The position numbers and the translations under genes are program-made. A stretch of 64,000 bases of DNA, taken from contig CAYOUG010000001.1 in the NCBI GenBank assembly GCA_964407105.1, forward strand, positions 8,059 to 72,058, in the 5' to 3' direction. Of this stretch, positions 3,057-61,576 are shown piece after piece. Every line of letters begins with the position of its first letter. Position 1 is the stretch's first letter. The notes under the pieces are model-generated. The model made no database searches. It was given only the letters and a program-made list of their open reading frames with translations, and was not told where the DNA came from. This DNA is from an uncultured Candidatus Saccharibacteria bacterium. GTDB lineage: Bacteria > Patescibacteriota > Minisyncoccia > Phycocordibacterales > CALRHW01.

Positions 3057-4013
3057 ATGGTTGAATTTTTAAATACCCACAAAAACATGAAATACGACAA
3101 ACAATACCCCATTAAAATTCTACCGAAATCAGACTTTCCACCACTACTAAAACATATCAATGATCCGCCACAAACACTCTATATAAGAGGTGTTCTACCA
3201 AACGACCCAGAAACCAAATATCTTTGTGTGGTGGGTTCACGAGCATATACAAATTATGGAGAAGAAGTGTGTAAAACACTCATATCTGGCTTACGAGGAC
3301 AAAACATAATAATAGTATCTGGTCTTGCGCTTGGTATTGATTCAATCGCTCACCGCTCTGCACTCGATGCCAAACTTACCACTATTGCTGTACCGGGTTC
3401 TGGTTTAAATTCCCATGTGCTGTATCCGCGAGCAAACTGGCAATTAGCAGAAAAAATTCTTGATTCTGGTGGAGTAATCATTTCTGAAGAAGAACCCTCC
3501 TATCGCGCCACGCCGTATAGTTTTCCAAAACGCAACAGAATTATGGCGGGGATGTCTCATGCTGTGCTTGTTATAGAAGCCGAGCTTAAATCTGGCACAC
3601 TCATCACATCAAAATACGCAACAGAATACAATAGAGACGTTTTCACAGTCCCCGGCTCTATTTTTTCAAAAAAATCTGATGGGCCACACATGCTTCTAAG
3701 ACTGGGCGCTACACCCGTGAGAAAAAGTGATGATATTTTAGAAGCGCTTGGTTTCAGTGTTGAAGATGAAAATAAAAAAGAAAAAACACCGGAACAAATA
3801 CAAGCGCTTTATCAAAAAACTCTTACACTTTGCACACCCGACGAACGCGCCACGCTCAGCATTCTCGCCGACACATCTCATACGCGCGACGAACTCATTA
3901 GACTTCTCACAAAATCTCTTGAAAAACCAGTTTCAGAAATTACAGCATTACTCATGATGATGGAAATTAAAGATCTTATTGTTGAAAAAATGGGAGAAAT
4001 ATTTATAGTGTAA
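3057..4013 (+). CDS. dprA: DNA processing protein DprA (Smf)
   Basis: 318 aa; Rossmann-like DprA core (GSRAYTNYG...GLALGIDSIAHRSAL...VIEAELKSGTLITSKYA). Lies upstream of topA as in many bacteria. Confidence 0.88.
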   Translation: MVEFLNTHKNMKYDKQYPIKILPKSDFPPLLKHINDPPQTLYIRGVLPNDPETKYLCVVGSRAYTNYGEEVCKTLISGLRGQNIIIVSGLALGIDSIAHRSALDAKLTTIAVPGSGLNSHVLYPRANWQLAEKILDSGGVIISEEEPSYRATPYSFPKRNRIMAGMSHAVLVIEAELKSGTLITSKYATEYNRDVFTVPGSIFSKKSDGPHMLLRLGATPVRKSDDILEALGFSVEDENKKEKTPEQIQALYQKTLTLCTPDERATLSILADTSHTRDELIRLLTKSLEKPVSEITALLMMMEIKDLIVEKMGEIFIV

Positions 4014-4044: not shown

Positions 4045-6264
4045 TTGAGTCACATGAAATTACTTATTGTCGAGTCGCCAGCAAAAGCAAAAACTATTTC
4101 AAAATATTTGGATGGTAAATTTACTGTGAAAGCATCAGTAGGTCATATTCGTGATTTACCAAAAAATAATAAAAAAGCAATCGACATCGAAGGTGGTTTT
4201 ATTCCTCACTATGAAATTTCAAAAGGTAAAGAGAATGTTGTGTCAGAAATAAAAGCGCTCGTAAAAAAAGCAGATGAAATTTATCTTGCTACCGACCCTG
4301 ATCGAGAAGGTGAGGCTATAGCTTGGCATATTGCGCAAGCCACGGGGATTAAAAATCCACAACGTGTCGTTTTTCACGAAATCACCAAAGATGCAGTAAC
4401 AGAAGCAATTCAACATCCGCGCGATATAGACGACAATTTAAAACAAGCTCAAGAAGCACGACGTGTGCTCGATCGTCTTGTGGGTTACGATCTTTCCGGC
4501 ATCATCTGGAAAAAAGTACGCTACGGTCTTTCTGCTGGACGCGTACAGTCGCCAGCTCTTCGTATTCTAATGGAAAGAGAACGAGAAATCCGCGCGTTCA
4601 TTTCTAATAAATTTTGGACAATCACCGCAGATCTTGAAAACACTGCAAAAAATAAACTCACATACACATGCGCGGACGAGCCAACAGATTTTTCTGTTGT
4701 AGAAAAAATTCTCTCTGCGGGAAAAGCTGGTGAATGGAAAATTACAGATATTAAAGAAACAGAAGTAAAACGTTCACCACGTGCACCGTTTACCACGTCC
4801 ACACTTCAACAAGCCGCAAGTTCACGACTTGGTTTTGCTCCATCAAAAACGATGGGGATTGCGCAAAAACTTTATGAAGCTGGACATATTTCATACATGC
4901 GCACAGACAGTACAACCCTTAGCTCACTTGCTATCGAACAAATTTCTGGGGTTATAGAAAAAAAGTTTGGAAAAAATTATCTCTCAGTGCGTGCATATAA
5001 AACAAAAAGTAAAAATGCACAGGAAGCACACGAAGCCGTACGACCAACACATTTTGGTAGTGAAAATGCTGGAACAACCGATGAACAAAAAAAACTTTAT
5101 CGACTTATTTGGCGTCGAGCAGTGGCTTCTCAAATGTCTGATGCAAATACGTTGCGTACACGCGTGACCACAAACATTGGTATAGCAGATGGTGTTGCGG
5201 GCGCTAAAACAGAGGCAATCCCCGATTTTCACGTCAATGGTTCTCGTATTCTTTTTGATGGGTGGTATGCCGCTGATCCCGCCGCTCGACAAGAAGATGT
5301 AGAACTCCCAAAAATGAGTATCGGTGAAGCATTAAAACTTATTGAAATAAAAACGGAAGAAAAAGAAACTCAACCACCAACACGTTATTCTGAAGCGGGT
5401 CTTGTAAAAGAGTTAGAAAAGCGCGGTATCGGTCGCCCATCTACTTACGCAAATATCATTAAAACAATTGTCGATCGTGGATACGTCCTCAAACAAAACA
5501 AAGCACTCGTACCCACAGACATTGGCGATGTTGTGAGCTCGTTTCTCGAAGACAATTTTATGAAATATATCAGTGATTCATTTACTGCTGAAATGGAAGA
5601 TAAGCTCGATGATATTGCAGAAGGAAAAGCTGAATATGAGAAAATTTTAAGCGCCTATTACAAACCATTAGCAAAAGAAGTTAAAGAAAAAGAAAAGCTC
5701 GCAAAAGCCACAGACCTCGGAAAAGCTCCAGCAGAATTTAAATGTCCTGTATGCAAAAGCGACATGATTATCAAACTCAGTAAGAGTGGAAGGTTTATGA
5801 GTTGTGAAAAATTTCCTGAATGTACTGGTGCTCGCACAATAGAAGGAAAAGAACTTGAGGGTCCAAAAGAAACAGGCGAAATGTGTCCTGAATGTAGTAC
5901 AGGTAAACTCATAGAACGCGACGGAAAGTTTGGACGTTTTATCGCATGCAACAATTATCCAAAATGTAAGTTTATTAAAAAAGACGCCGAGCTTGAAAAA
6001 CAAAATTCTACTGGTGTAACATGTCCTATCTGTAAAGATGGAATGATGACTGAACGCAGAGGACGTTTTGGACTTTTTTATAGTTGTAGCAATTATCCAA
6101 AATGTAAGCACGCCATAAAAGCAAAACCGACAGGAAATATTTGTGGCTACATGCGCGAAAACGGCCCGTGTCCTGCGCTAATGATGGAAGGTACGAAAAC
6201 AATTCCCGAGCGATGTTCAGATAAACTGTGTCCAAATCATAATCCGCATAAGTTGGGGAAATAA
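4045..6264 (+). CDS. topA: DNA topoisomerase I with C-terminal zinc-ribbon repeats
   Basis: 739 aa; TOPRIM N-terminus (MKLLIVESPAKAKTISKYL...GHIRDLP) and three C4 zinc-finger repeats (CPVC...C..C, CPEC, CPIC). Confidence 0.95.
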   Translation: MSHMKLLIVESPAKAKTISKYLDGKFTVKASVGHIRDLPKNNKKAIDIEGGFIPHYEISKGKENVVSEIKALVKKADEIYLATDPDREGEAIAWHIAQATGIKNPQRVVFHEITKDAVTEAIQHPRDIDDNLKQAQEARRVLDRLVGYDLSGIIWKKVRYGLSAGRVQSPALRILMEREREIRAFISNKFWTITADLENTAKNKLTYTCADEPTDFSVVEKILSAGKAGEWKITDIKETEVKRSPRAPFTTSTLQQAASSRLGFAPSKTMGIAQKLYEAGHISYMRTDSTTLSSLAIEQISGVIEKKFGKNYLSVRAYKTKSKNAQEAHEAVRPTHFGSENAGTTDEQKKLYRLIWRRAVASQMSDANTLRTRVTTNIGIADGVAGAKTEAIPDFHVNGSRILFDGWYAADPAARQEDVELPKMSIGEALKLIEIKTEEKETQPPTRYSEAGLVKELEKRGIGRPSTYANIIKTIVDRGYVLKQNKALVPTDIGDVVSSFLEDNFMKYISDSFTAEMEDKLDDIAEGKAEYEKILSAYYKPLAKEVKEKEKLAKATDLGKAPAEFKCPVCKSDMIIKLSKSGRFMSCEKFPECTGARTIEGKELEGPKETGEMCPECSTGKLIERDGKFGRFIACNNYPKCKFIKKDAELEKQNSTGVTCPICKDGMMTERRGRFGLFYSCSNYPKCKHAIKAKPTGNICGYMRENGPCPALMMEGTKTIPERCSDKLCPNHNPHKLGK

Positions 6265-6309
6265 AAGCACAGAACATATCCGTCTGTTCTTTTATTTCTC
6301 AATTCATTA

Positions 6310-6417
6310 AAACAATAACACTGTGTCTCGAAAACCACGCATAAAAGCCTGCTGGCTTTTTGCTACGCTCGGCCCGTCGGCCTGCGCGATGCTTTTCTCG
6401 ACACAGTGTTATTGTTT
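6310..6417. repeat. nested-hairpin intergenic repeat element, family 2, copy A
   Basis: 26-bp inverted arms (aaaacaataacactgtgtctcgaaaa / ttttctcgacacagtgttattgtttt) flank a GC-rich core ...gcctgctggctttttgctacgctcggcccgtcggcctgcgcgatgc. The core is near-identical to copy B at 11549-11652. Lies between the convergent topA and parB. Confidence 0.7.
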
Positions 6418-6424
6418 TACAAAT

Positions 6425-7480
6425 CTACACACTAAAATTTTTGATTGAATACAGCTCCTCCTCACTCTCCTGCTTTTCTGTTTTTGAGCGATCGTCAGCA
6501 AGATCTGATGTGAGAATTGGTTCTGGCGTTGAGGTTTCTTGCGATACTACATTTTGCCCCATTACCTCATCTGCATTTATAGATAAAGGTGTGGATGTAT
6601 TTTTCCCAAGTGTCTCAATATGTTTATCAAGCATCGCTGTAGCACCGCGAGATTTTTGCGATTCAAGCATATCTAAAATCGTGCGTAAGTCATCGTTTGA
6701 AAAGAAATCAATAGAAAGCTTTCCCCCATTTTCTTTTCGTTCAATAGACACGCGGGTGCCAAGCGTTTCAGAAAGTTTTTCTTCAAGTTCCACAAGCTCC
6801 GGGTCATGCATGAGCTCTTTCTTACGCACTTTATCAAAAGCAATTTTTCGAGAAATTGCTTCAGCTTCGCGTACTGTAAGTTTTTTGTAAACAATTTCTT
6901 TAAAAAGAGTATTTTGTTCTTCTGGTCTATCAACAAGCATCATGAGCGGACGCGTATGACCTTCAGAAATTTTTCCTGCACCGAGTGCATCAAGAATTTC
7001 CGATGGCAAAGAAAGAATACGGAGCGTGTTACTTACATACTCACGACTTTTACCAACCTTCGCAGCAATTTCGTTGTGCTTAAATTTAAATTCAATAGCA
7101 AGTCGCTCAAACGCTCGCGCACGATCAACAGGATTCAAGTCTTCGCGTTGAATATTTTCTATAATCGCGAGCTCAAGCTTCATAAGGTCGCTGTCATCAC
7201 CAGTTTTAATTAGCACCGGCACCTGTGTAAGACCAGCAAGCTTTGATGCACGCAAACGACGTTCACCGGCAATAATTTCATATTCCACCGCAAGTCCACC
7301 GTCTTCTTTTGGAACCTCTTTACGAGTAACGACAAGCGCCTGAAGTACACCGTATTGGCGAATAGAATCAGCGAGACTTTGGAGTTGCGCCTGATCAAAT
7401 TCGCGCCGTGGTTGAAACGGATTTGGTTTTATTTTATCTACATCCACCCAGAAAACTGAATCGTTGTAATACTGTGACAT
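6425..7480 (-). CDS. parB: chromosome partitioning protein ParB/Spo0J
   Basis: 351 aa; ParB box (VLQALVV...EIIAGERRLRASKLAGL) and HTH. No adjacent parA. Confidence 0.88.
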   Translation of the reverse strand: MSQYYNDSVFWVDVDKIKPNPFQPRREFDQAQLQSLADSIRQYGVLQALVVTRKEVPKEDGGLAVEYEIIAGERRLRASKLAGLTQVPVLIKTGDDSDLMKLELAIIENIQREDLNPVDRARAFERLAIEFKFKHNEIAAKVGKSREYVSNTLRILSLPSEILDALGAGKISEGHTRPLMMLVDRPEEQNTLFKEIVYKKLTVREAEAISRKIAFDKVRKKELMHDPELVELEEKLSETLGTRVSIERKENGGKLSIDFFSNDDLRTILDMLESQKSRGATAMLDKHIETLGKNTSTPLSINADEVMGQNVVSQETSTPEPILTSDLADDRSKTEKQESEEELYSIKNFSV

Positions 7481-7534
7481 GGTGGTTTTATTTTAACATT
7501 GATTTATGCCTAAAATCTAGTAGACTCAGTGCAT

Positions 7535-7616
7535 GCCGTGGTGGCGGAATTGGTAGACGCACACGACTCAAAATCGTGCGGAGCAATCCATGAGAGTTCG
7601 ATTCTCTCCCGCGGCA
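7535..7616 (+). tRNA. tRNA-Leu (anticodon CAA)
   Basis: Cloverleaf: acceptor GCCGTGG/CCGCGGC, anticodon stem cacga/tcgtg with loop CTCAAAA, long variable arm, T-loop TTCGATT. Confidence 0.85.
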
Positions 7617-7663
7617 CAGTTTTTAATCTTGGTTTTTAGTTTTTTGAAAAACACCCACAAACC

Positions 7664-7692
7664 TATTGACATTTACATATTTATGTAATACA
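7664..7692 (+). promoter_or_regulatory. sigma70-like promoter (TTGACA-17-TACAAT) for the repeat-protein gene
   Basis: ttgacatttacatatttatgtaatacaat read directly from the sequence. Confidence 0.4.
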
Positions 7693-7710
7693 ATACTTTT
7701 ACATATGAAT

Positions 7711-8349
7711 GGTATGAAATTTTTCATGTTAATAATCTTGATAGCCATCGTGGCAATTCCACGTATTTCCCTCTCGGAATTTCCGGCTAATTCGCCATAT
7801 CCGGGTGAATTTTATGCTCTGTGTCGTGATGGAATTGATAACGATGGCGACGGAATGATTGATGACGGTCTTACTGTGCCCGGCGTACCCGCCGACCCAG
7901 ATTGTCCTAAATGTTACGATGGTATAGACAATGAGCCAGATGGATTTATAGACTTCGAAGATTCAGATTGTCCACAAAGTGGAGAGGTTCTTGGTGCTAA
8001 TAATTCAAACAATGGAAATAATTTAAATGGCAACAGCAATTTAGATGGTACAAGTAACTTGGACGGAAATAGCAACCTTGATGGTAATAGTAATTTAGAT
8101 GGAAATAGTAATCTAAAAGGAAATAGCAACTTAAAGGGCAACAACAATCTTAATGGTTCAAGTAATTTAAATGGGAATAGTAATCTTTCTAGTAACAACA
8201 ATTTAAACGGCACAAGTAATCTTGGTGGCAATAGCAACTTAAATGGAAACAGTAATCTAAACGGAAATAGCAACCTTGATGGTAACAGTAATTTAGATGG
8301 AAATAGTTTTGGTGATGACTGTCATTGTCATTGTGGTTGTGACTGGTAA
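7711..8349 (+). CDS. secreted acidic protein: Cys/DxDxDG calcium-binding-like motifs, 17 tandem G-N-S-N-L-D/N/K hexapeptides, C-terminal CHCHCGC cluster
   Basis: Start at MKFFMLIILIAIVAIP (signal/TM). CRDGIDNDGDGMIDDG and CYDGIDNEPDGFIDFEDSDC motifs. The 18-bp DNA repeat at 8005-8310 encodes GNSNLD-type units. C-terminus is DDCHCHCGCDW. Confidence 0.6.
   Translation, partial: GMKFFMLIILIAIVAIPRISLSEFPANSPYPGEFYALCRDGIDNDGDGMIDDGLTVPGVPADPDCPKCYDGIDNEPDGFIDFEDSDCPQSGEVLGANNSNNGNNLNGNSNLDGTSNLDGNSNLDGNSNLDGNSNLKGNSNLKGNNNLNGSSNLNGNSNLSSNNNLNGTSNLGGNSNLNGNSNLNGNSNLDGNSNLDGNSFGDDCHCHCGCDW
8005..8310 (+). repeat. 18-bp tandem repeat (~17 units) encoding the hexapeptide GNSNL(D/N/K)
   Basis: Repeating ggNaaYagYaaYYTNgaY units are visible. 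The minus-strand ORF 7914..8273 is the mirror-image artefact of this repeat. Confidence 0.85.
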
Positions 8350-8358
8350 TGTGAGCTT

Positions 8359-9270
8359 ATGAATGCTCAAAAAAAACTTATTGTAATACTTGGACCAACA
8401 GCTTCTGGAAAAAGTTCACTTGCTGTTGAGATAGCTCGTGATCTAAAAAAAGACGAAATTAATGCAGAAATTATTTCTGCGGACTCACGACAGATATATA
8501 CAGGCCTTGATATTGGCACAGGAAAAATATCACACAAGGAGATGATGGGAATACCCCACCATCTCCTTGATGTTTGTAGTCCCAAAAAATGCAGATTTAC
8601 TGTGGCAGATTTTCAGCGCCGCGCGCATGCGGCTATCGCCGCAATGCATGCGCGCGGCGCAATCCCCATTCTCTGTGGCGGTACCGGCTTTTATATCCAA
8701 TCAATAGTAGACAACATTACTCTACCCGAAGTTCCACCCAACAAAAAACTTCGCGTAAAACTTGAGAAACAAAGCACTGAGAAACTTTTTGAAACTCTCA
8801 AAAAACTCGATTTGAAACGTGCTCGGGGAATTGATGCGTTCAACAGACCACGCCTCATTCGTGCAATTGAAATCGCAACAGCTCTTGGAAAAGTACCCGC
8901 TGTAAAATCGCGGCCACTGTATGATGTTTTGCAAATTGGAATTATGACAGATGAGAAAAAATTGCGAGCACGCATTCACGAACGCCTTTTTGCACGCATG
9001 AAAAAAGGCATGCTGACCGAAGCAAAAAAACTTCACGCCCGCGGACTTTCATACACACGCATGAATGAGCTTGGTTTGGAATACAAATACCTTGCCTTGT
9101 TTTTACAGAAAAAAATCTCACGCGCAGAAATGCTTAAAACACTTGAACAAGAAATCTGGCACTACGCAAAACGCCAAATGACGTGGTTTAAAAAGGATAC
9201 ACGCATTGCGTGGTTTCCTCTTTCAAAGAAGGTTACGATTAAAAAAGTGGTGCGAAATTTTTTGAAATAA
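8359..9270 (+). CDS. miaA: tRNA dimethylallyltransferase
   Basis: 303 aa; P-loop GPTASGKS followed by the IISADSRQIY motif. Confidence 0.9.
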   Translation: MNAQKKLIVILGPTASGKSSLAVEIARDLKKDEINAEIISADSRQIYTGLDIGTGKISHKEMMGIPHHLLDVCSPKKCRFTVADFQRRAHAAIAAMHARGAIPILCGGTGFYIQSIVDNITLPEVPPNKKLRVKLEKQSTEKLFETLKKLDLKRARGIDAFNRPRLIRAIEIATALGKVPAVKSRPLYDVLQIGIMTDEKKLRARIHERLFARMKKGMLTEAKKLHARGLSYTRMNELGLEYKYLALFLQKKISRAEMLKTLEQEIWHYAKRQMTWFKKDTRIAWFPLSKKVTIKKVVRNFLK

Positions 9271-9295
9271 ATAAAAAATAAACCTATCTTAAAAC

Positions 9296-9853
9296 TTATT
9301 TACGTCGAACAATAAGTATCGCTGAAAGTAGGATGTTTCCACATATCCAAGCTACAATCCAAGAAGAAGAAAGAAATGTGTAATACTCCACAGCAAACAG
9401 TGCCAAACAAAATCTTAAAGCATTGGTTACATAGAGCGAAAGTGTTTCTGAATATGGCTCATAATATGATTTGCGAACTGTTGGAATAAAAGCAAACATA
9501 TCAGCGAGAATAACTAAAATCATAGAGATCACAGGCTGGTCAACGATGAGCCAAAAAAATATTGCAACGAGAGATAAAACTGCCACTACCGTATCAGATC
9601 TTGTTATATCTTTCTTACCATTTTTAAAACTTAAAATAACGACCCCGATACACAAAAGTCCGGCAGATATTGTCACCAACACAGCGGGTCCAGCACCTCC
9701 CTTGATTTGTAGGGCAACAAGTAAGATCGTGAGTAGTCCCCACAATGACCAACTATAAATATGTGGGCGAGTTTTACCATTTAAAATATCACGATAGTAC
9801 GGGATATATGCCACAAAAGTTAGTACAGCAGCAGCAATGCCAATAATTTCTTT
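9296..9853 (-). CDS. integral membrane protein, PQ-loop/SemiSWEET-like repeats (ORF may extend to 9979)
   Basis: About 6-7 TM helices. LTFVAYIPYYRDILNGKTRPHIYSWSLWG resembles the PQ-loop motif (LPQ...K.T...S...W). Start chosen at MKEIIGIAAA; upstream in-frame M residues exist. Confidence 0.35.
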   Translation of the reverse strand, partial: KEIIGIAAAVLTFVAYIPYYRDILNGKTRPHIYSWSLWGLLTILLVALQIKGGAGPAVLVTISAGLLCIGVVILSFKNGKKDITRSDTVVAVLSLVAIFFWLIVDQPVISMILVILADMFAFIPTVRKSYYEPYSETLSLYVTNALRFCLALFAVEYYTFLSSSWIVAWICGNILLSAILIVRRK

Positions 9854-9975
9854 CATTCTTTTTTGCGGGCCCACTCCGACTCGAACGGAGAACTGCGCTT
9901 TTGGAGAGCGATGTTTTACCATTGAAACTATAGGCCCAATGTGGTTATGGTAGCAGAAAAAACTGGTTTTTAAAA

Positions 9976-10032
9976 GCAAAAAACGCTTCCGAACGAGTTA
10001 GCGAAGCGCTTTAGAGAGGAAGCGTTTTTTGC
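9976..10032. repeat. hairpin element family 1 copy (conserved core, co-varying arms); bidirectional terminator-like
   Basis: Arms gcaaaaaacgcttcc/ggaagcgttttttgc flank the core gaacgagttagcgaagcgctttagagag. T-runs lie on both sides. Lies downstream of rpmG. Confidence 0.7.
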
Positions 10033-10039
10033 GTTTTTA

Positions 10040-10198
10040 TTACTTCTTTGCTTCTTTATGAGGAGTGCGTTTCTTACACCAAGAACAATACTTTTTGAGC
10101 TCTATTTTTCGCTCAACAAGCTTCTTGTTTTTACCAGTTTGGTAGTTTGCTCGTTTGCAAGTTTTACAAACAAGTTTGATTAATCGATCTTGTGACAT
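10040..10198 (-). CDS. rpmG: 50S ribosomal protein L33
   Basis: MSQDRLIKLVCKTCKRANYQTGKNKKLVERKIELKKYCSWCKKRTPHKE shows the L33 Cys pattern. The ORF-track start lies upstream; start taken at MSQD. Confidence 0.8.
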   Translation of the reverse strand: MSQDRLIKLVCKTCKRANYQTGKNKKLVERKIELKKYCSWCKKRTPHKEAKK

Positions 10199-10277
10199 AG
10201 GCACTACTATACAAAAAAGCCCTAAAAAAAGCAATATTATGCCTAAGAGCTAACCTTATGCTATCTTGGGCACTTCT

Positions 10278-11420
10278 CTAAAGATAAATACGCTTAATGA
10301 GGGGATTAAGGCGAGTCACAAACTCATAGGGTGAATTGTGGGCCAAATCAGCGAGCTCTTCGGCTCGTATAATTTCCCCACCGTCGGTTCCGATAAGCGT
10401 TACTTCATCACCCACAGAAACATCAGGAATATCAGTAGTGTCGATGATAATCATATCCATAGAAACACGACCGAGGACTCGCGCGCGTGCTCCACGCACA
10501 AGGACACATCCCACGCTCGAAAGCGCGCGCGCATACCCATGCCAATATCCGATCGGACAAATAGCAATAGTACTATCGCGCGAAAAAGTTTCTGTAAAAT
10601 CATAACCCACCGAATCCCCCTTTGGCACCTTTTTTACTTCACCAATAATTGTTCGCCAAGACAAAATTGGTTTTAATTCTACTTTTTGTGAAGAAAACAT
10701 TTTTGTTTCTTTTGATGGCCAAATGCCATAAAGAGCAATACCGATACGCACCATATCAAAATGAGCTTGAGGAAAAATAAGTGTTCCACCACTTGCTGAT
10801 GTGTGTTTTATCGTTTTAAAACCAGCTTGATCAAAAGCACTTACCCACACACCAAAAGAAACCACCTGAGCAAGAGTTTTTTCTGGAACAGACGGATCTT
10901 TTGCTGCCGCAAAATGCGTAAAAAGACCTTCCACCAAAACTTTATTTTCAAGCACTTTGAGCATATCAATCACCTCTTGTATTTGAAATTCCTGAAAACC
11001 CTGTCTGTGCATGCCGGTGTCTACCTTTATATGAATTTTTAGTTTTTTTGAAAAATTAATCGAAGCAATAACTCCAAGTAATTCAAATGTGGAAACGGTA
11101 ATGCTAATATCAAGATCCGCTGCGCGTGGAAGCATTTCTGGAAGTGTATATCCAAGCACAAGTATTGGCTTTGTTACACCTTCTTCACGAAGCGCAAGGG
11201 CTTCCATAATAGAATCAACGCCAATCCAATCGACGCCACTTTTTTCCATCTCTTTTGCAACACCCACAAAGCCGTGCCCATAAGCATTAGACTTCACCAC
11301 CGACATTATTTTGCAGTTTTTTGAAAGATTTTTTTTAAGTGTTAAATAATTATGTTCAAGTGCCTTGGTATCTATTTCAATCCATGTGCGCAAACCTTTT
11401 CTCTCGAGATCTTTTTTCAT
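10278..11420 (-). CDS. alr: alanine racemase
   Basis: Start taken at MKKDLERKGLRTWIEID; PLP-lysine region VVKSNAYGHG. The ORF-track N-terminal extension (MLRSARRPARCFS...) runs through tRNA-Tyr and repeat copy B, so it is rejected. Confidence 0.85.
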   Translation of the reverse strand: MKKDLERKGLRTWIEIDTKALEHNYLTLKKNLSKNCKIMSVVKSNAYGHGFVGVAKEMEKSGVDWIGVDSIMEALALREEGVTKPILVLGYTLPEMLPRAADLDISITVSTFELLGVIASINFSKKLKIHIKVDTGMHRQGFQEFQIQEVIDMLKVLENKVLVEGLFTHFAAAKDPSVPEKTLAQVVSFGVWVSAFDQAGFKTIKHTSASGGTLIFPQAHFDMVRIGIALYGIWPSKETKMFSSQKVELKPILSWRTIIGEVKKVPKGDSVGYDFTETFSRDSTIAICPIGYWHGYARALSSVGCVLVRGARARVLGRVSMDMIIIDTTDIPDVSVGDEVTLIGTDGGEIIRAEELADLAHNSPYEFVTRLNPLIKRIYL

Positions 11421-11421
11421 C

Positions 11422-11508
11422 TGGTGCGTAGGGAAGGATTCGAACCTTCGTAGCCCAATGGGCGACAGATTTACAGTCTGTTGCGATTGACCGCTCCGCC
11501 ACCTACGC
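11422..11508 (-). tRNA. tRNA-Tyr (anticodon GTA), class II long variable arm, encoded CCA
   Basis: Reverse complement folds with acceptor GCGTAGG/CCTACGC, anticodon loop CTGTAAA, long extra arm, T-loop TTCGAAT and a CCA end. Confidence 0.85.
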
Positions 11509-11548
11509 AATACCACGAATTCTAAGCCAAAATTGACCTTAAGTAAAG

Positions 11549-11652
11549 CTGTAAAATAAGTGTTTGAAAAGCATCGCGCAGGCCGACGGGCCGAGCGTAG
11601 CAAAATCGCAGCAGCGATTTATGCGTGGTTTTCAAACACTTATTTTATAGCT
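11549..11652. repeat. nested-hairpin intergenic repeat element, family 2, copy B (inverted relative to A)
   Basis: About 27-bp arms (taaagctgtaaaataagtgtttgaaaa / ttttcaaacacttattttatagcttta). Core is the reverse complement of ccacgcataaatcgctgctgcgattttgctacgctcggcccgtcggcctgcgcgatgc. Lies downstream of gyrB. Confidence 0.7.
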
Positions 11653-11655
11653 TTA

Positions 11656-13737
11656 CTAGATATCAATCGTCGCTTTCTTTGCATTCGACTGAATAAAAGA
11701 TTTTCGAGACGGCACATCAGTACCCATGAGAATATCAAAAACTTTGTCAGCGGCCACACCATCTTCAACGGCTACTTGTTTTAAAATACGATTGCCCGGA
11801 TCCATAGTGGTCTCCCAAAGTTCTTCTGAGTTCATTTCTCCAAGACCTTTGTAACGCTGAATAGAAATTTTATTTTTTCGAGGCACTTTTCCTTTTGTTT
11901 CAGAAGTAGTATTTTCGTTACCCGCTTCTCCACCACCCTCTTCTTCAAAATCTCCACTGTCACCTTGAGAATCTTCCATTATTTCTTCTGCGGAAACATC
12001 TTTTCCAATTTTTTCGATCTTTTCAGCATCAGTGTAGGCATACATTACCTCCTTCCCTTTTTTAATTTTATAGAGTGGTGGCTGAGCAATATATACAAAT
12101 CCCCCGTCAATAAGCGGTCGGAAAAAACGATATAAAAGTGTCAAAATAAGTGTACGAATATGCGCACCGTCCACGTCGGCATCGGTTGCAAGAATAATTT
12201 TGTGATAGCGGAGCTTGGTAATATCAAAAGTGTCGCCAATAGCCGTACCGAGCGCGACCACCAAATTTTTAATTTGCTCTGATTCAAGCATACGATCAAG
12301 ACGCGCACGCTCAATATTTAAAATTTTTCCTCGAAGTGGTAGCACCGCTTGTGTGCGTCTATCGCGACCAGATTTTGCTGTACCGCCCGCAGAATCTCCC
12401 TCTACAATAAAAAGCTCCGACTCACTTGCGTCTTTCGTCTGACAATCTGCAAGTTTTCCGGGAAGTGTCATGCCTTCAAGTGCGCCCTTTCGAAGCACAC
12501 TGTCTTTTGCTGCTTTTGCAGCCTTGCGAGCTTTGAGCGCAAGCACAACCTTATTGATCATTGCACGTGCATCTTCAGGATTTTCTTCTAGAAAATAATT
12601 GAATGATTCACTAAAAATAGTTTCCACCGCGCCACGAGCTTCTACTGTACCGAGTTTTGCTTTTGTTTGACCTTCAAATTGAATTTCTCGAAGTTTGATA
12701 GACACCACAGCGGTCAGACCTTCAAGAGCATCTTCTCCAGTAAAATTATCCTCGTTTTCCTTAACCATATTATTTTTGCGTGCATAGGCATTAAGTGTAC
12801 GAGTGAGAGCGGTTTTAAAACCAGTAATATGTGTTCCACCTTCTGAGTTATAAATATTGTTTGCGAAAGCCAAAATTCTGCTTGAAATATCATCTACATA
12901 CTGCAAAGAAACTTCCACCGACTCATATTCATTTGTTGGCTTTTCAACATAAAAAATATTTTTGTGAATTGGCTTAAGGGTTTGATTGTAAAACTTTACC
13001 ATAGAAAGAATACCTCCTTCAAAATAAAAAGTTTGTGACGGTGCATCTACCCCAAGCTCACTGAAATAAAATATTTCTCCAGGAATTTCTTTTGTATAAT
13101 TTCTTGCGTCAATAACAGAAATACGAAGACCTTTTACAAGATATGCTTGCTGACGCATGTGTCCCACAATACGATTGAAATCGAAAGTTTGTTTACCAAA
13201 AATTTCTTCATCTGGTTCAAAGGAAATTATTGTTCCGCTGTGTTTTGTGGCACTCACACGCTTTACCACTGCTTTTCTTTTTCCTCGACTATACTCCTGA
13301 ACATAATAACCACCGTCTTTATGAATCTCTGCTTTTACATAAACAGAAAGTGCGTTTACTACAGAAGCACCCACACCATGAAGACCTCCCGACACCTTGT
13401 ATCCTTCACCACCAAATTTTCCTCCAGCGTGAAGTGTTGTCATAATTGTTTCAAGTGCAGAAACTTTTGTTTGTTTATGAATATCAACAGGAATACCTCG
13501 GCCGTTGTCTGTTACACGTACGCGATTATTTGGCAAAAGAACAATTTCAATATTATCGGCAAAGTCACCCATCGCTTCGTCGCGGGAGTTATCAAAAATT
13601 TCAGTAACGAGGTGATGGAAACCATCTGGACCGGTAGTACCAATGTACATACCCGGACGTTTTCGTACTGGTTCCAAACCCTCGAGCACCGAGATTGCTT
13701 CTGCGGTATATCCTCCTTTTTTTTCTTCTTTTGCCAT
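11656..13737 (-). CDS. gyrB: DNA gyrase subunit B
   Basis: 693 aa; GHKL ATPase, TOPRIM and C-terminal domains; EGDSAGG motif. Confidence 0.95.
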   Translation of the reverse strand: MAKEEKKGGYTAEAISVLEGLEPVRKRPGMYIGTTGPDGFHHLVTEIFDNSRDEAMGDFADNIEIVLLPNNRVRVTDNGRGIPVDIHKQTKVSALETIMTTLHAGGKFGGEGYKVSGGLHGVGASVVNALSVYVKAEIHKDGGYYVQEYSRGKRKAVVKRVSATKHSGTIISFEPDEEIFGKQTFDFNRIVGHMRQQAYLVKGLRISVIDARNYTKEIPGEIFYFSELGVDAPSQTFYFEGGILSMVKFYNQTLKPIHKNIFYVEKPTNEYESVEVSLQYVDDISSRILAFANNIYNSEGGTHITGFKTALTRTLNAYARKNNMVKENEDNFTGEDALEGLTAVVSIKLREIQFEGQTKAKLGTVEARGAVETIFSESFNYFLEENPEDARAMINKVVLALKARKAAKAAKDSVLRKGALEGMTLPGKLADCQTKDASESELFIVEGDSAGGTAKSGRDRRTQAVLPLRGKILNIERARLDRMLESEQIKNLVVALGTAIGDTFDITKLRYHKIILATDADVDGAHIRTLILTLLYRFFRPLIDGGFVYIAQPPLYKIKKGKEVMYAYTDAEKIEKIGKDVSAEEIMEDSQGDSGDFEEEGGGEAGNENTTSETKGKVPRKNKISIQRYKGLGEMNSEELWETTMDPGNRILKQVAVEDGVAADKVFDILMGTDVPSRKSFIQSNAKKATIDI

Positions 13738-22468: not shown

Positions 22469-22539
22469 GGTGTTTAGTTTAACAGATTTAGTGTAGCAGA
22501 AATTTAATCTGTACACAGAAAATGGTCAAGAATAGGGCT

Positions 22540-22602
22540 AAAAGAAAAAGGACTTCCGAGCGGGTTAGCGTAGCGCTTTAGCGAGGAAGTCCTTTTTCTT
22601 TT
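22540..22602. repeat. hairpin element family 1 copy
   Basis: Arms aaaagaaaaaggacttcc/ggaagtcctttttctttt flank the core gagcgggttagcgtagcgctttagcgag. Lies downstream of rpmE with T-runs on both sides. Confidence 0.7.
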
Positions 22603-22606
22603 GCCA

Positions 22607-22867
22607 TTACTCTTCTTTCTTCTCTTTTGAATCCGAAACCTTTTTAGCTTTCTTAGGAAGAGCCTCTGATTTTGAACGTCGATTTTTAAACTTTTCTACA
22701 CGTCCTGCAGCATCAAGAACCTTTTCATTACCTGTATAAAATGGATGACATGCGCTACAAATTTCCACCGTGATTTTCTCTTTGGTAGATCCAATATTAA
22801 ATTTATTTCCACATGCACACGTCACGCTTGCCTTTGGAAAATACATAGGATGTAACTCTTTTTTCAT
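22607..22867 (-). CDS. rpmE: 50S ribosomal protein L31 with a Lys-rich C-terminal extension
   Basis: [46 protein letters not shown], then [15 protein letters not shown]. Confidence 0.85.
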
Positions 22868-39052: not shown

Positions 39053-39170
39053 GAAATTCGTTTTAATAGTATGTTCGGAGGGGGTCTCGAGCGCGACGGC
39101 GCGAGAGCTTCAGGATTTTTTAAGCTTCAAAAAATCCGTACCCGGAGAACATACTATTAAAACGAATTTT
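39053..39170. repeat. nested-hairpin intergenic element, family 2-like divergent copy D
   Basis: About 27-bp arms (aaattcgttttaatagtatgttcgg / ccggagaacatactattaaaacgaattt). GC-rich core contains ctcgagcgcgacggcgcgagag, related to the cgccgtcgcgcctgcgcgag core of copy C. Lies downstream of lemA. Confidence 0.6.
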
Positions 39171-42072: not shown

Positions 42073-42149
42073 CTGGAGCGGTATGAAATATGCTTTTGAG
42101 CGAGTTAGCAAAGCGCTTTAGCGAGAAAGCATATTTCACACCGCTCCAG
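42073..42149. repeat. hairpin element family 1 copy (longest arms)
   Basis: Arms ctggagcggtatgaaatatgcttt/aaagcatatttcacaccgctccag flank the core tgagcgagttagcaaagcgctttagcgag. Lies between the divergent groES and secG. Confidence 0.7.
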
Positions 42150-46275: not shown

Positions 46276-46869
46276 TCAGTCCTCAGCCTGCGGCTTGGGC
46301 TTAGGCTTCGGTGCTGGCGTCGGTGGTGGTCCAGGTGGTGGACCGCCGCCAACCCAGAAACAAGTGCTGGCTGTGAGAGCGTCGCACTTTGTGCCATTGG
46401 TGCACATTGTCGTTGTGCAACCGAACGTGACACCGTCATGGCAATCACATGGTTGCATGAGCACAACGACCGTGCCTCCGGGTGCAGGCATCGAGACTCC
46501 ACCGATTGCTCCGGCGACAATCACGTTGTCGCCAAGGTCGATGTTGTACTCAAACACCTGCACGCCGTTTGGCAAGATTCCGAGTGTGCCAAACACCGAG
46601 ACAACCATTCCGCTGGAAGTGGGAACAGCTGTGTAGGAAAACTTGTTTCCTACAACGGTTTGTGTGACGACGAATTCTTGTTCGCCGACAACAACCGTGA
46701 TGTTTCCGCTCACATGAGCGACGGAAACATCCTCGAACGGCAATTCAAAGGAAGCCGTTTTTCCCGTCATCGCCTTGGCGATATCAAAGCCGTTTCCAGC
46801 AAACGCTGGAACGGTGGGGATCGCCATTGCAACAAGCAAGGCGACAAGGCTCATCATTTTCCTGATCAT
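46276..46869 (-). CDS. hypothetical secreted protein, Cys-rich, with C-terminal Pro/Lys-rich tail (GC-rich island)
   Basis: 197 aa; signal peptide MIRKMMSLVALLVAMAIPTVPAFA; C-terminus ...GGGPPPGPPPTPAPKPKPKPQAED. About 55% GC versus a ~37% background. Confidence 0.5.
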   Translation of the reverse strand: MIRKMMSLVALLVAMAIPTVPAFAGNGFDIAKAMTGKTASFELPFEDVSVAHVSGNITVVVGEQEFVVTQTVVGNKFSYTAVPTSSGMVVSVFGTLGILPNGVQVFEYNIDLGDNVIVAGAIGGVSMPAPGGTVVVLMQPCDCHDGVTFGCTTTMCTNGTKCDALTASTCFWVGGGPPPGPPPTPAPKPKPKPQAED

Positions 46870-46937
46870 TACTCACTCCTTTGTTTGGAGTTTTCCCGAC
46901 CGAAAAAAAACGCAATCCCCTCTCTAAATCAGTAGTT

Positions 46938-47954
46938 TCAATCTGTTTTTCGCGCGGTCACCTCCATGGTTTGTGTTGGAACGAGATGAGAGTATTTGTA
47001 GCTGTACCTGTCGAACAGGTAATTTTGCCACGGCGTATACGGTGGCTCTGGCCATCGTACGTCGTTTGTGCGTTCAATTTCCCACCGAAGAATCAAAAAC
47101 GTTTTTGTGTCGATGTACATGTGGTCGTTTCTGACCGTCCATGACCGACGCGCACTGCCTCTCATCTTGCCCTCAGATCCTTCGTCCTGAGTAGCAACGT
47201 GGTAAACCTCCTTTCCGTCAAGCGTTTCTAGAGTAACAACTGATGTTCGACCAATTGTATCCATGAAAGCTTTGGCCTGAGAACTCCTATCGAGCCATGT
47301 GTTATGGAACTGTCCAATAGCACACACCGCCGCAGGAATTTCATCCGTAAGACAAGGCTGTGTTTTTAGATTCACATCACCAAACCCATGTGGATCTGGA
47401 GCTGGATATGAATCTGAGAAGTAGCCAACTTGCCCTGGTGTGTCATACCAGTTTGTTTCAGTGCACTCCCCGTCCTTGAGACTGAGGATGAGCTGTGGTT
47501 TATCAGCAGAAGTCTTCCGCATTTTGGTGCTGAAAGATTTTCTACCCATATCCGCACTTATTGAAACATGAGATGTGATAACACCAGGAAGGGTTGCTAC
47601 CGCGACACGAGGATTGAGCATCTCTCGCACCTGTCCCTCAGCAAGCTGGGGGGTTTGTACATAAGAGATCTCTAGCGTGGCTTCAAAAGCCAGTGAATCG
47701 AGAGAAGCATAGGCTTCCCCGACCTTTTTTGCAATTTCCTCCACGGTTGGAAGCGGAATTGAAATTGGCTTTGCCGACGTTTCGGGGGTTCCGATCGAAG
47801 CTTTCGCTTCGCTCGGAACTGTTTCTTCAGTCGCCACAACCAATGCCATACTGGCGGTAGTTGCGACAAGCATCAGAAGCGCGGTCCAAACAAGCGTTAG
47901 ACTTTTCACGGAATCCACCTTTCTTGAAAATTTAGAGTAGGAAAAAAACGGCAC
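46938..47954 (-). CDS. hypothetical secreted protein (possible LolA/RseB-like fold), GC-rich island
   Basis: 338 aa; N-terminal TM/signal; no confident family. Lies upstream of, and on the same strand as, the 197-aa secreted protein. Confidence 0.45.
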   Translation of the reverse strand: MPFFSYSKFSRKVDSVKSLTLVWTALLMLVATTASMALVVATEETVPSEAKASIGTPETSAKPISIPLPTVEEIAKKVGEAYASLDSLAFEATLEISYVQTPQLAEGQVREMLNPRVAVATLPGVITSHVSISADMGRKSFSTKMRKTSADKPQLILSLKDGECTETNWYDTPGQVGYFSDSYPAPDPHGFGDVNLKTQPCLTDEIPAAVCAIGQFHNTWLDRSSQAKAFMDTIGRTSVVTLETLDGKEVYHVATQDEGSEGKMRGSARRSWTVRNDHMYIDTKTFLILRWEIERTNDVRWPEPPYTPWQNYLFDRYSYKYSHLVPTQTMEVTARKTD

Positions 47955-58992: not shown

Positions 58993-59049
58993 GAATTGTT
59001 ACTTTCGTGCTTAGTATATCATCAAAAAGAAATTAGAAAAAACTGTTCA

Positions 59050-59168
59050 AAAAAAGCAGAGAAATGTGTGTTTTCTCAGCACGCGTCAAAGCCTGCTGGC
59101 TTTGCTGCTCCGCTCGGCGCCGTCGCGCCTGCGCGAGTCTTCGTAAACACACATTTCTCTGCTTTTTT
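59050..59168. repeat. nested-hairpin intergenic repeat element, family 2, copy C
   Basis: Arms aaaaaagcagagaaatgtgtgttt/aaacacacatttctctgctttttt flank the core ...aagcctgctggctttgctgctccgctcggcgccgtcgcgcctgcgcgag. Lies downstream of prfB. Confidence 0.7.
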
Positions 59169-59183
59169 TGATTTTTTTGATTT

Positions 59184-60059
59184 TTATAGACCCTTTTCAG
59201 CCTCAATAAATTCATCGAGTTCACCCCCCAATACTTTTTCAATATCTCTCACTTCTACTTCTGTACGGTGATCTTTTACCATTTGGTAAGGGTGCATCAC
59301 ATACGAGCGTATCTGACTTCCCCATTCATTTTGAGTTGTTTTACTTACATACATACCACTTTCCTTACTTTTTCTATCATCTTCTACCATTTTATAAAGT
59401 TTCCCACGCAAAATTTGCATTGCATGTTCACGATTTTGTGCCTGAGAACGCTCTGAATCTGCATGTACAGCAATACCGCTAGGAATATGCACCACCCGCA
59501 CCGCCGTCTCTCTTTTGTTTACATTTTGTCCACCCGGCCCACTTGAACGTGAAAACTCAAAACGAATATCGTCATCAGGAATATCCAAATCATCAAGTTT
59601 TTCAAATTTTGGAATTACTTCAACCATTGAAAAAGAGGTGTGTCGAAGTTTTTTTGCACTAAAAGGAGAAATGCGAACGAGCCGATGAACCCCAGATTCA
59701 TTTTTTAATGTTCCATAAACATTTTTTCCTATTATTTCAAGCATCACATTACGATAACCCCCGTGATCATTTTCATGTTTGTGTATAAAATTTACACTCC
59801 AATCGTGATTTTGAATATACTTCAAATACATTTCAAGAAGAATGTGCGTAAAATCTTCGGCGTCATCACCTCCAGCACCAGAAAAAATGGTCATGATGGC
59901 GTTACCTTTGTCGTATTTTCCCACCCCCCCAAGCTCATCTTTTAAAGTCTGAAGTTCTTTAATTATATTTTGCGCGAGAACCTTGTCGTTCCAAAAATCA
60001 GGCGCTAGCATACGCGCCTCAATTTCAGCAATTTTTTTCTCAATCTCTTCTTTCTGCAT
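59184..60059 (-). CDS. prfB: peptide chain release factor 2 (no programmed +1 frameshift site evident)
   Basis: SPF and GGQ motifs. The ORF starts in the region equivalent to post-frameshift E. coli RF2. No upstream CUU-UGA-C window was found. Confidence 0.88.
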   Translation of the reverse strand: MQKEEIEKKIAEIEARMLAPDFWNDKVLAQNIIKELQTLKDELGGVGKYDKGNAIMTIFSGAGGDDAEDFTHILLEMYLKYIQNHDWSVNFIHKHENDHGGYRNVMLEIIGKNVYGTLKNESGVHRLVRISPFSAKKLRHTSFSMVEVIPKFEKLDDLDIPDDDIRFEFSRSSGPGGQNVNKRETAVRVVHIPSGIAVHADSERSQAQNREHAMQILRGKLYKMVEDDRKSKESGMYVSKTTQNEWGSQIRSYVMHPYQMVKDHRTEVEVRDIEKVLGGELDEFIEAEKGL

Positions 60060-60697: not shown

Positions 60698-60811
60698 ACT
60701 AATTAGTATTTGTGAATCATACTACAGGGTACTTTTTTTTCAATCTTTAGGGATGAATACTTTAGGAAAACTTTAGCACTTCTTGAGCCGTTGTTTTGTA
60801 ATATATATCCA

Positions 60812-61576
60812 ATGGCGAAATACCAAAAAAAACTCATAGCGATCGAACTCAGGAAAAAAGGACTGAGTATTAATGCTATTGCTAAAAAACTTGATATTTC
60901 AAAAGGAACGGTTAGCTTGTGGTGTAAAGATATGAAACTTACAGAAGAACAAAAAAATGTTTTAAAACAAAATACTATAAAAGCTGGTCATAAAGGCAGA
61001 AGTCTGGGAACAGAAAAACAAAAAAAGAAAAAATTGGATATTGTAAATTTTTATAATAACCTTGCAGAAAAAGATGTTGGGGCACTTTCCAATCGAGATT
61101 TTTTACTTATTGCTGCCGCGCTGTATTGGGGAGAAGGAAGTAAAACCAGCAACAGATTTATTTTTGTGAATTCAGACCCAAACATGATTAAATGTATGTA
61201 TATTTTTTTAACAGAAGTGTTAAAAATTGATAAAAATGACATACGACCCACCATACAAATAAACGAAATCCATCGACCACGTATCGACAAGGTCTTAACT
61301 TTTTGGCATATTTTGCTACAATTACCACTTAGTAGCTTCAATAAACCATATTATGTAAAGACCCCACAAAGAAAAGTCTATGCAAACTATGATTCATATT
61401 ATGGAGTACTAAGACTTAAGATCTTGAAGGGATCACGCATACAGTATAGAATACTGGGTCTTATTAAAGCATTATGTCGAGGTAGCTCAATGGTGGAGCA
61501 GTCGTTTCATAAGCGACAGGATATGGGTTCGACTCCCATCCTCGACACTATTTCAGATAATGATTTAGTGTATTGA
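60812..61576 (+). CDS. HTH + LAGLIDADG-like (single-motif) endonuclease-fold protein; the ORF reads through the tRNA-Met gene
   Basis: N-terminal HTH (KGLSINAIAKKLDISKGTVSLW). FLLIAAALYWGEGSKTSNRFIFVNSD resembles LAGLIDADG (GEG in place of DGDG). No in-frame stop until 61576, so the last ~33 codons overlap the tRNA-Met at 61476-61547. Confidence 0.35.
   Translation: MAKYQKKLIAIELRKKGLSINAIAKKLDISKGTVSLWCKDMKLTEEQKNVLKQNTIKAGHKGRSLGTEKQKKKKLDIVNFYNNLAEKDVGALSNRDFLLIAAALYWGEGSKTSNRFIFVNSDPNMIKCMYIFLTEVLKIDKNDIRPTIQINEIHRPRIDKVLTFWHILLQLPLSSFNKPYYVKTPQRKVYANYDSYYGVLRLKILKGSRIQYRILGLIKALCRGSSMVEQSFHKRQDMGSTPILDTISDNDLVY
61476..61547 (+). tRNA. tRNA-Met (anticodon CAT; elongator Met or Ile2/lysidine type, not initiator-like)
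   Basis: GTCGAGGTAGCTCAATGGTGGAGCAGTCGTTTCATAAGCGACAGGATATGGGTTCGACTCCCATCCTCGACA. Lacks the three G-C pairs that mark an initiator anticodon stem. Confidence 0.8.

Follow-up and report, generated by a model that had tools for sequence, protein, structure and literature searches.

The spacer between the convergent topA and parB genes contains a hairpin element (copy A), at distances of 5 nt to the stop of parB and 43 nt to that of topA. Seven hairpin elements of this one architecture were found in the window, that is, in the whole 64-kb stretch of DNA analysed here (Table 1). Four of them are the copies of family 1 together with a sister copy (copy D), and the other three belong to a second family (family 2). 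The elements are 65-125 bp long, contain no plausible ORF and are multi-copy, with seven copies in the 64 kb and further copies in many MAGs; loci outside the window are given below by their L numbers. Reading of the sites and an inverted-repeat scan bore out the four copies that a preliminary description of this DNA had placed next to topA/parB, gyrB, lemA and prfB. That set was incomplete, as the scan also revealed the three copies of family 2, which have the same architecture.

Table 1. Hairpin elements of the 64-kb window and tRNA-linked units of other genomes.
Element	Position	Strand	Arms and core
Family 1, copy A	6308..6419	+	arms 6308-6337 and 6390-6419; subtype CCACGCAT...GCGATGC
Family 1, copy B	11542..11657	-	29-nt arms, one mismatch
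Family 1, copy C	59047..59171	+	perfect arms 27/27; subtype GCACGCGT...GCGAGTC
Sister family, copy D	39054..39169	-	perfect arms 23/23; divergent core
Family 2	9972..10036	+	19-nt arms around core GAACGAGTTAGCGAAGCGCTTTAGAGAG
Family 2	22528..22614	+	inner 18-bp arms 22540-22557 and 22585-22602, perfect
Family 2	42073..42149	+	24-nt arms, 96% complementary; divergent secG|groES region
tRNA-linked units	L037:3195-3270, 3604-3679, 4223-4319, 5588-5663		
tRNA-linked units	L044:285-362, 4775-4846, 5489-5563, 5671-5746		
tRNA-linked unit	L023:4350-4422		

The arms of copy A are 30 nt long and show 90% complementarity in the inverted-repeat scan, with 20 nt of them perfect, and its core contains two hairpins, P2 (AAAAGCC-TGCT-GGCTTTT) and P3 (GGCC-CGTC-GGCC). 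In copy B the start of the hairpin overlaps the gyrB stop codon, a tRNA gene lies downstream, and a weaker 82% inverted repeat reaches out to 11524-11675. The core of this copy is that of copy A except for the P2 stem (AAATCGC/GCGATTT), and the near-identity previously claimed for the two cores holds, since they differ only by compensated changes in one inner stem. Copy C occupies the spacer between two minus-strand genes, prfB and ftsE, at a distance of 12 nt from the stop of prfB. The prfB gene (59184-60059, minus strand) is called as a 291-aa piece, here and in public contigs, which is consistent with the programmed +1 frameshift usual for this gene. The motif GCTCGGC(G)CCGTCG(C)GCCTGCGCGA (23-25 nt) is exact in copies A, B and C, and was found in none of 100 dinucleotide-preserving shuffles. 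The identical core read in frame explains the identical spurious ORF starts ('MLRSARRPARCFS') that had been pointed out earlier.

Copy D lies between lemA and the gene for an M48 peptidase, 7 nt from the lemA stop. Its hairpins are GGATTTTTT-GAAGCTT-AAAAAATCC for P2 and GCGC-CGTC-GCGC for P3, and the copy scores 35.6 bits with covariance model R1. The sister family has the P3 module in common with family 1, and members of the same type were found in L042, L053 and L127.

The family-2 core, GAGCGAGTTAGCGAAGCGCTTTAGCGAG, is 27-29 nt long and can be written in degenerate form as GA(A/G)CG(A/G)GTTAGC(G/A)(A/T)AGCGCTTTAG(A/C)GAG. It contains GCGAAGC, a very stable DNA mini-hairpin motif. The first copy of this family (9972) has an unannotated stretch, apparently a short gene, on one side and a tRNA gene on the other. 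The second (22528) is located between rpmE (L31) and prfA, with an outer arm overlapping the 3' end of rpmE; the same intergenic position is occupied in L026 by a family-1 copy. Outside the window, family 2 was found at L015:3432 and L100:7957.

A consensus structure was drawn from an alignment of 21 AT-type copies, in which the arms are gap-free. It consists of a conserved GC-rich apex module on the tip of copy-specific arms. The arms are 12-41 bp long and 97% Watson-Crick (WC) paired. The module comprises, in order, a short CGC(G)/(C)GCG closing helix, the P2 hairpin with a variable stem of 6-7 bp and a fixed UGCU loop, the junction CUGCUCC GCUC, and the P3 hairpin with stems GGCGC, GGCC, GGCCC or GGCUC and a fixed CGUC loop; the pairing of the junction is not identical among subtypes. 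The inner arm is conserved as GAAAAG/CTTTTC, sometimes with a small UC/UC internal loop. Recurring arm sequence is confined to the inner ~9-12 nt (e.g. TTYGAAAAG/CTTTTCRAA), and the outer arms differ in every copy. The covariation of the arms around a conserved core, already proposed from the window copies, is clear in this alignment and extends to an inner stem: 96.5% of the cells pair and 23 of the 37 pairs are changed on both sides, values that none of 500 shuffles reached and that slid registers did not come close to. On either strand, the predicted fold of each window copy is much more stable than that of shuffled sequence (z-scores from -8.2 to -14.1). Many of the arms finish in runs of T that are matched by runs of A, some copies have no clear T run, and the apical 'loop' is 27-71 nt long.

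The P2 stem variants (alignment A2, columns 30-48) are few and recurring (…TCCC, …TCGC, …AGCC, …TCGT, …TCCT and …AATC), and they occur in both core subtypes and in different genomes, with the rest of the core invariant. A nested insertion was observed at L118:12151-12363 (minus strand), where a family-1 copy has its P3 replaced by a different hairpin of ~120 nt with 15-bp arms of its own.

Both neighbours were called for 32 copies, and these are flanked by convergent genes in 12 cases, by tandem genes in 19 and by divergent genes in one. All but one of them (31/32) face at least one gene 3' end, a location at the 3' ends of transcription units that they have in common with intrinsic terminators. 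The exception, family-2 copy 42073, is located in a region of divergent promoters, so that the earlier statement that all copies adjoin gene 3' ends stands for copies A to D and fails for this one. Most copies start between -15 and +25 nt from a stop codon, and the arms often take in the stop of one or both genes. With respect to the upstream gene, copies divide 13:6 between the two orientations, a difference without statistical significance. In most tandem copies, the G.U-bearing strand runs antisense to the gene upstream.

The arms of 37 distinct copies contain 753 WC pairs, 3 G.T, 14 A.C and 7 other pairs, and one-sided changes from G-C to G-U are nearly missing. This near-pure WC compensation points to a process at the DNA level that would keep the palindrome perfect, rather than to ordinary RNA covariation. 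Selection on an RNA stem would hardly produce arms of 27-41 bp with at most one mismatch, which argues for templated DNA copying from arm to arm. Since plain terminators of the relatives are also long perfect palindromes (15-26 bp in L133, L134, L137, L195 and L201), this palindrome-perfecting process seems to be general in these organisms. The 14:3 ratio of A.C over G.T implies G.U-type pairs on the complementary strand; the A.C excess is unlinked to the direction of the neighbouring genes.

Changes in the arms were also visible between orthologous copies. Those of L025 and L067 differ at several compensated arm positions, and the right arm of L067 is extended by 9 nt, which are an inverted copy of the 3' end of the left gene. 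L020:4680-4782 and L088:5896-5998 have a common convergent site and homologous arms, with the core flipped and a different P2 stem variant; the flip is as expected for recombination between the inverted arms.

A variant of the module was found 3' of tRNA genes, on the tRNA strand, in L023, L037, L044 and L090. Within the two loci L037 and L044, a unit follows most of the tRNA genes, and six of the seven units examined there end in an exact 21-nt copy of the cognate tRNA 3' end, from C56 in the T loop to CCA, which the tRNA genes of both loci encode. The L023 unit bears a 20-nt tail copy with C75 as its last tRNA position (...ACC-T), which matches the context of the gene. These direct repeats of 20-21 nt are a feature of the tRNA-linked units and are not applicable to the window copies. 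In front of several units there is a partial inverted copy, with its start at the CCA complement. In L044 two units stand in tandem after tRNA-Phe, and one L037 unit bears the tail of tRNA-Leu(gag), the gene of which is ~1.1 kb away. In L093 and L102 the arms correspond to the T-loop and 3' sequence of the neighbouring tRNA. In one helix of this subtype, G.U wobbles are kept on the tRNA-sense strand, at pair 38-67 in six of eight units and at another pair in three of eight.

The arms thus derive from the adjacent tRNA in the tRNA-linked subtype, and one flank-derived extension is present in L067. For 35 copies, a permutation test (median p 0.62, one copy <0.1) rejected a general rule that arms are inverted duplications of their immediate flanks, and no other source sequence for the arms of any interspersed copy was found in the window. 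Candidate processes for the tRNA-tail copies are staggered-cut duplication, an att-like event and RNA-end capture. Remnants of an integrase-borne island were also considered and rejected, as no integrase lies next to the tRNA-linked units, whose neighbours are rpsA and ruvX.

The closest relatives available share 82-86% amino-acid identity with the window in GyrB, GroEL and ParB. Three of the seven window copies are wholly missing there, arms included, and two are present but decaying; the sites of copy C and of the family-2 copy 9972 are covered by none of the relatives and lie outside this comparison. At the site of copy B, a 28-nt spacer separates the gyrB stop from the same tRNA in the closest relative (L115). 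Copy D is missing in L198/L199, where the lemA TAA abuts the ATG of the M48 gene, and in L195, which has a 39-nt spacer. The family-2 copy 42073 is missing at the same site in L195, L198 and L201. The orthologue of copy A in L204 is degenerate, with 6 of 73 core positions changed and the inner arm pairing lost, and in L207 the site is empty, the two stops being 6 nt apart. A decayed orthologue of the family-2 copy 22528 was found in L115. Decay was thus seen in a sister lineage that has no new insertions.

Both filled 3'-end sites (copies B and D) carry the stop codon TAG, versus TAA in their empty orthologues, a hint that insertion may lie within or beside the stop codon, from two sites in diverged sequences. 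An origin by insertion of the core into the loop of a pre-existing terminator was rejected for copies B, D and 42073, because the relatives have no hairpin at all at these sites; it may have taken place elsewhere, as in the nesting in L118.

When 0.94 Mb of gyrB surroundings from 80 relatives was searched with covariance models, no more than 4-5 loci had copies, and loci L195-L202 of the relatives had none. Orthologous cores differ, P2 apart, at ~1 in 50 nt, with coding flanks 72-85% identical, which suggests a sequence-specific function or ongoing gene conversion and not plain junk. The core is near-identical also among the other aligned MAG copies, and this high identity together with the patchy spread indicates recent spread, gene conversion or strong constraint.

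A plain terminator hairpin with 16-bp arms is located at 6258-6298, between topA and copy A, and is missing from the orthologous spacer of L204; ordinary palindromic terminators likewise come and go in this group.

By its GroEL and ParB homologues, the window belongs to the Paceibacterota/Parcubacteria part of Patescibacteria. An exact-pattern scan of one genome per species found ~50 copies of the core in MAGs of Saccharibacteria, Paceibacterota/Parcubacteria, Kaiserbacteria, Berkelbacteria and Doudnabacteria. About 40 of them are inside long copy-specific inverted arms, and the rest are tRNA-linked or cut by contig ends. The base composition of the arms tracks the host genome. The same scan gave no convincing match outside Patescibacteria: matches in actinomycetes, myxobacteria and other GC-rich genomes were attributed to chance, as neither a P2 hairpin nor arms were found on inspection. 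A phage origin was rejected because viral contigs contain no exact match to either core.

The elements are not pieces of a known IS, rRNA or Rfam family; the Rfam searches gave no relevant match. At the gathering score tRNAs alone were reported, and at E<=10 over 6200-11800 the matches were weak (18-24 bits), far under threshold. A tRNA, tmRNA or tRNA-like gene was rejected as well, because ARAGORN and Rfam call ordinary tRNAs only and no cloverleaf could be drawn. Neither a transposase nor a RAYT was found in the 30 window ORFs scanned, and no transposase, integrase or reverse transcriptase lies beside any copy, in a view that covers part of one genome. No locus has two cores flanking an ORF. 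A literature search returned no description of these hairpin elements.

Taken as a whole, we regard these hairpins as a Patescibacteria-specific superfamily of non-coding palindromic elements, each gained and lost as a whole, with DNA-templated arms and a predicted role as bidirectional-stop hairpins, a reading that we place slightly above even odds (about 0.55). A mobilising enzyme would act in trans on the non-autonomous element. Copies settle immediately after stop codons, and in many cases they provide the stop or overlap it. The arms would be kept complementary by intra-strand template switching or palindrome correction, and not by selection at the RNA level. Once settled, the hairpin (-50 to -70 kcal/mol, with A/T runs in many copies) could stop transcription both ways, or alternatively protect RNA 3' ends or serve as an RNase III site between packed genes. 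Judging from position, predicted stability and A/T runs, the elements probably act as a bidirectional terminator or RNA-end hairpin. Against the mobile part of this reading, there is no clear target-site duplication; filled and empty sites of copies B and D leave at most 1 nt of ambiguity at the stop codon, in relatives that are diverged. Against the terminator part, one copy lies between divergent promoters, and copy D splits a pair in which lemA and the M48 gene overlap in a relative. The preliminary description had favoured selection on structure rather than a recent mobile copy. Covariation and the conserved core agree with the first half of that view; whole-unit gain and loss, patchiness, decay and compensation that is almost purely WC speak against the second.

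A part of the evidence could also be read as that of a cis-acting structured RNA, in which P2/P3 would be a 3'-UTR or trailer motif for a Patescibacteria-specific protein or RNA factor, presented by the arms, with each copy under selection. Conservation is much higher in the core than in the coding flanks, the core is common to deep lineages, its loops are fixed while its stems covary, the A.C excess on one strand amounts to G.U on the other, and the tRNA-linked subtype keeps its G.U pairs on the tRNA-sense strand (38-67 in 6/8 units). The A.C excess and the tRNA-subtype wobbles suggest that one strand may indeed fold, as RNA or as single-stranded DNA. However, the orientation of copies to the upstream gene varies (13 versus 6), the core is flipped at an orthologous site, and the closest relatives lack most copies. 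The stem compensation is WC only, and most tandem copies have their G.U strand antisense to the gene upstream, so that we hold this explanation to be doubtful, at about one chance in five. Rather less probable is that P2/P3 is the active unit of an undescribed mobility mechanism, which would join a hairpin apex or 3' ends (C56-CCA, gene ends) and be copied into both arms. It would explain why the tips sit on copy-specific arms, the nesting in L118, the tRNA tails of L037 and L044 and the strand-specific G.U pairs; if true, the elements would be a bacterial counterpart of tRNA-linked SINE-type or hairpin-capping elements.

The tRNA-linked units also bring to mind 3'-end capture, whereby the module would join the 3' end of an RNA or DNA (tRNA CCA, a terminated transcript) and be copied back, with the interspersed copies as SINE-like descendants. 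We consider this unlikely, even with the exact 21-nt tRNA-tail copies in 6/7 units of L037 and L044, the partial inverted copies from the CCA complement before several units, the arms of L093 and L102 from a neighbouring tRNA and the lack of an integrase nearby. The interspersed arms resemble neither their own flanks (median p 0.62) nor the rest of the window, and the L023 tail copy ends ...ACC-T, as in the gene context, and not ...ACCA. Moreover, CCA is gene-encoded in L037 and L044, a staggered-cut duplication at the DNA level gives the same pattern, and there is no reverse transcriptase among the sequence examined. Very improbable is a signal at the DNA level, that is, a self-recognition uptake sequence or a recombination or replication site within terminators, on the model of the Neisseria DUS pairs. 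A GC-rich conserved motif in an AT-rich genome, orientation-independent and placed in terminator-like palindromes, would suit such a signal, as would the very stable mini-hairpin GCGAAGC of family 2 and the presence of dprA within the window; in addition, Saccharibacteria are reported to be naturally competent (PMC10187176). Yet the density is far too low (7 per 64 kb, and none in most relatives), the units are structured and ~100 nt long instead of 10-12-mers, and close relatives have no copies.

The elements were also compared with known systems. Correia elements (CREE) of Neisseria are non-coding intergenic palindromes of ~100-150 bp that form transcript hairpins, have effects on termination and RNase III processing, and encode no transposase of their own. 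The elements described here are likewise non-coding palindromic repeats near gene ends without a transposase of their own. Correia elements, however, are bounded by conserved terminal inverted repeats of 26 bp, duplicate a TA target and have a centre that is variable or binds IHF, whereas here the centre is conserved, the outer arms are copy-specific and no TA duplication was observed. REP/BIME/REPIN sequences are units of 20-40 nt whose stem with a GTAG head is conserved within a genome, and are associated with RAYT transposases. Points in common are the extragenic palindromes at 3' ends, the convergent genes and the use as targets of nested insertions, together with roles as terminator or mRNA stabiliser and a non-autonomous nature with mobilisation in trans, which are predicted for the elements described here. 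In contrast to them, the window elements have neither a GTAG head nor a conserved stem, and no RAYT occurs in the window ORFs scanned; a 20-40-nt palindrome with conserved stem and GTAG-type head is replaced by a conserved apex on variable stems.

The uptake-sequence pairs of Neisseria and Haemophilus are similar in that a conserved short GC-rich motif lies, in either orientation, in hairpins that are, or here are predicted to be, bidirectional terminators, but there the motif is the stem and occurs about once per kb, while here it is the structured apex and is rare. Integrative elements at tRNA sites and CIMEs, with att sites of the T-loop class, share the direct repeat of the tRNA 3' end from the T loop and tandem accretion (compare tRNA-Phe in L044); they differ from the units found here, which are only ~90-150 bp, stand behind many different tRNAs of one genome, have an inverted partial copy and lack an integrase nearby. 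Integron attC sites are also imperfect palindromes at gene 3' ends that act as folded single strands, with conserved outer R/L boxes and a variable centre; the window elements have the opposite layout and no integron context. The outer arms, being copy-specific, are not terminal inverted repeats conserved among copies, and the elements are therefore not classic MITEs. The earlier suggestion of a 'REP-like terminator/insulator or MITE-like' element was thus in the right neighbourhood, but the defining sequence features of REP and MITE are lacking. Since the behaviour is like that of Correia, REP/REPIN and uptake-sequence terminators and their defining sequence features fail, the elements are best classed as a kind of small interspersed palindromic repeat.

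Patescibacteria have tiny, tightly packed genomes, thought to be poor in repetitive and selfish DNA. Yet one small structured element is common to several of their lineages and has proliferated in some genomes; it can land inside a stop codon or between overlapping genes. Should it act as a portable bidirectional terminator, it would illustrate how the limits of transcription units arise and disappear in streamlined genomes. The layout reverses the designs of MITE, REP and attC, with a conserved tip on free but perfectly complementary arms. The growth of arms and the tRNA-tail copies offer a tractable system for the formation of palindromes, and possibly a new insertion mechanism. Covariance models such as R1 and R2 could flag these sites for annotators and avoid spurious 'MLRSARRPARCFS' ORF starts.

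Other features of the window were recorded. An ORF in a tRNA cluster (60791-61576, plus strand) has an N-terminal HTH (HTH_23) and the stretch AAALYWGEGSK, which is LAGLIDADG-like by eye, and may encode a homing-endonuclease-like protein; its limits are doubtful, as a tRNA call extends over its 3' end. GC content in the window is highest at 46276-47954 (0.49 versus ~0.39); this stretch contains two minus-strand ORFs (197 and 338 aa) without a Pfam match and may be foreign DNA. A GC-rich hairpin of 16 bp, CAAGGAGATGGTGGGG-TAT-TCCCATCATCTCCTTG, is located inside the miaA coding region (8535-8569, minus strand).
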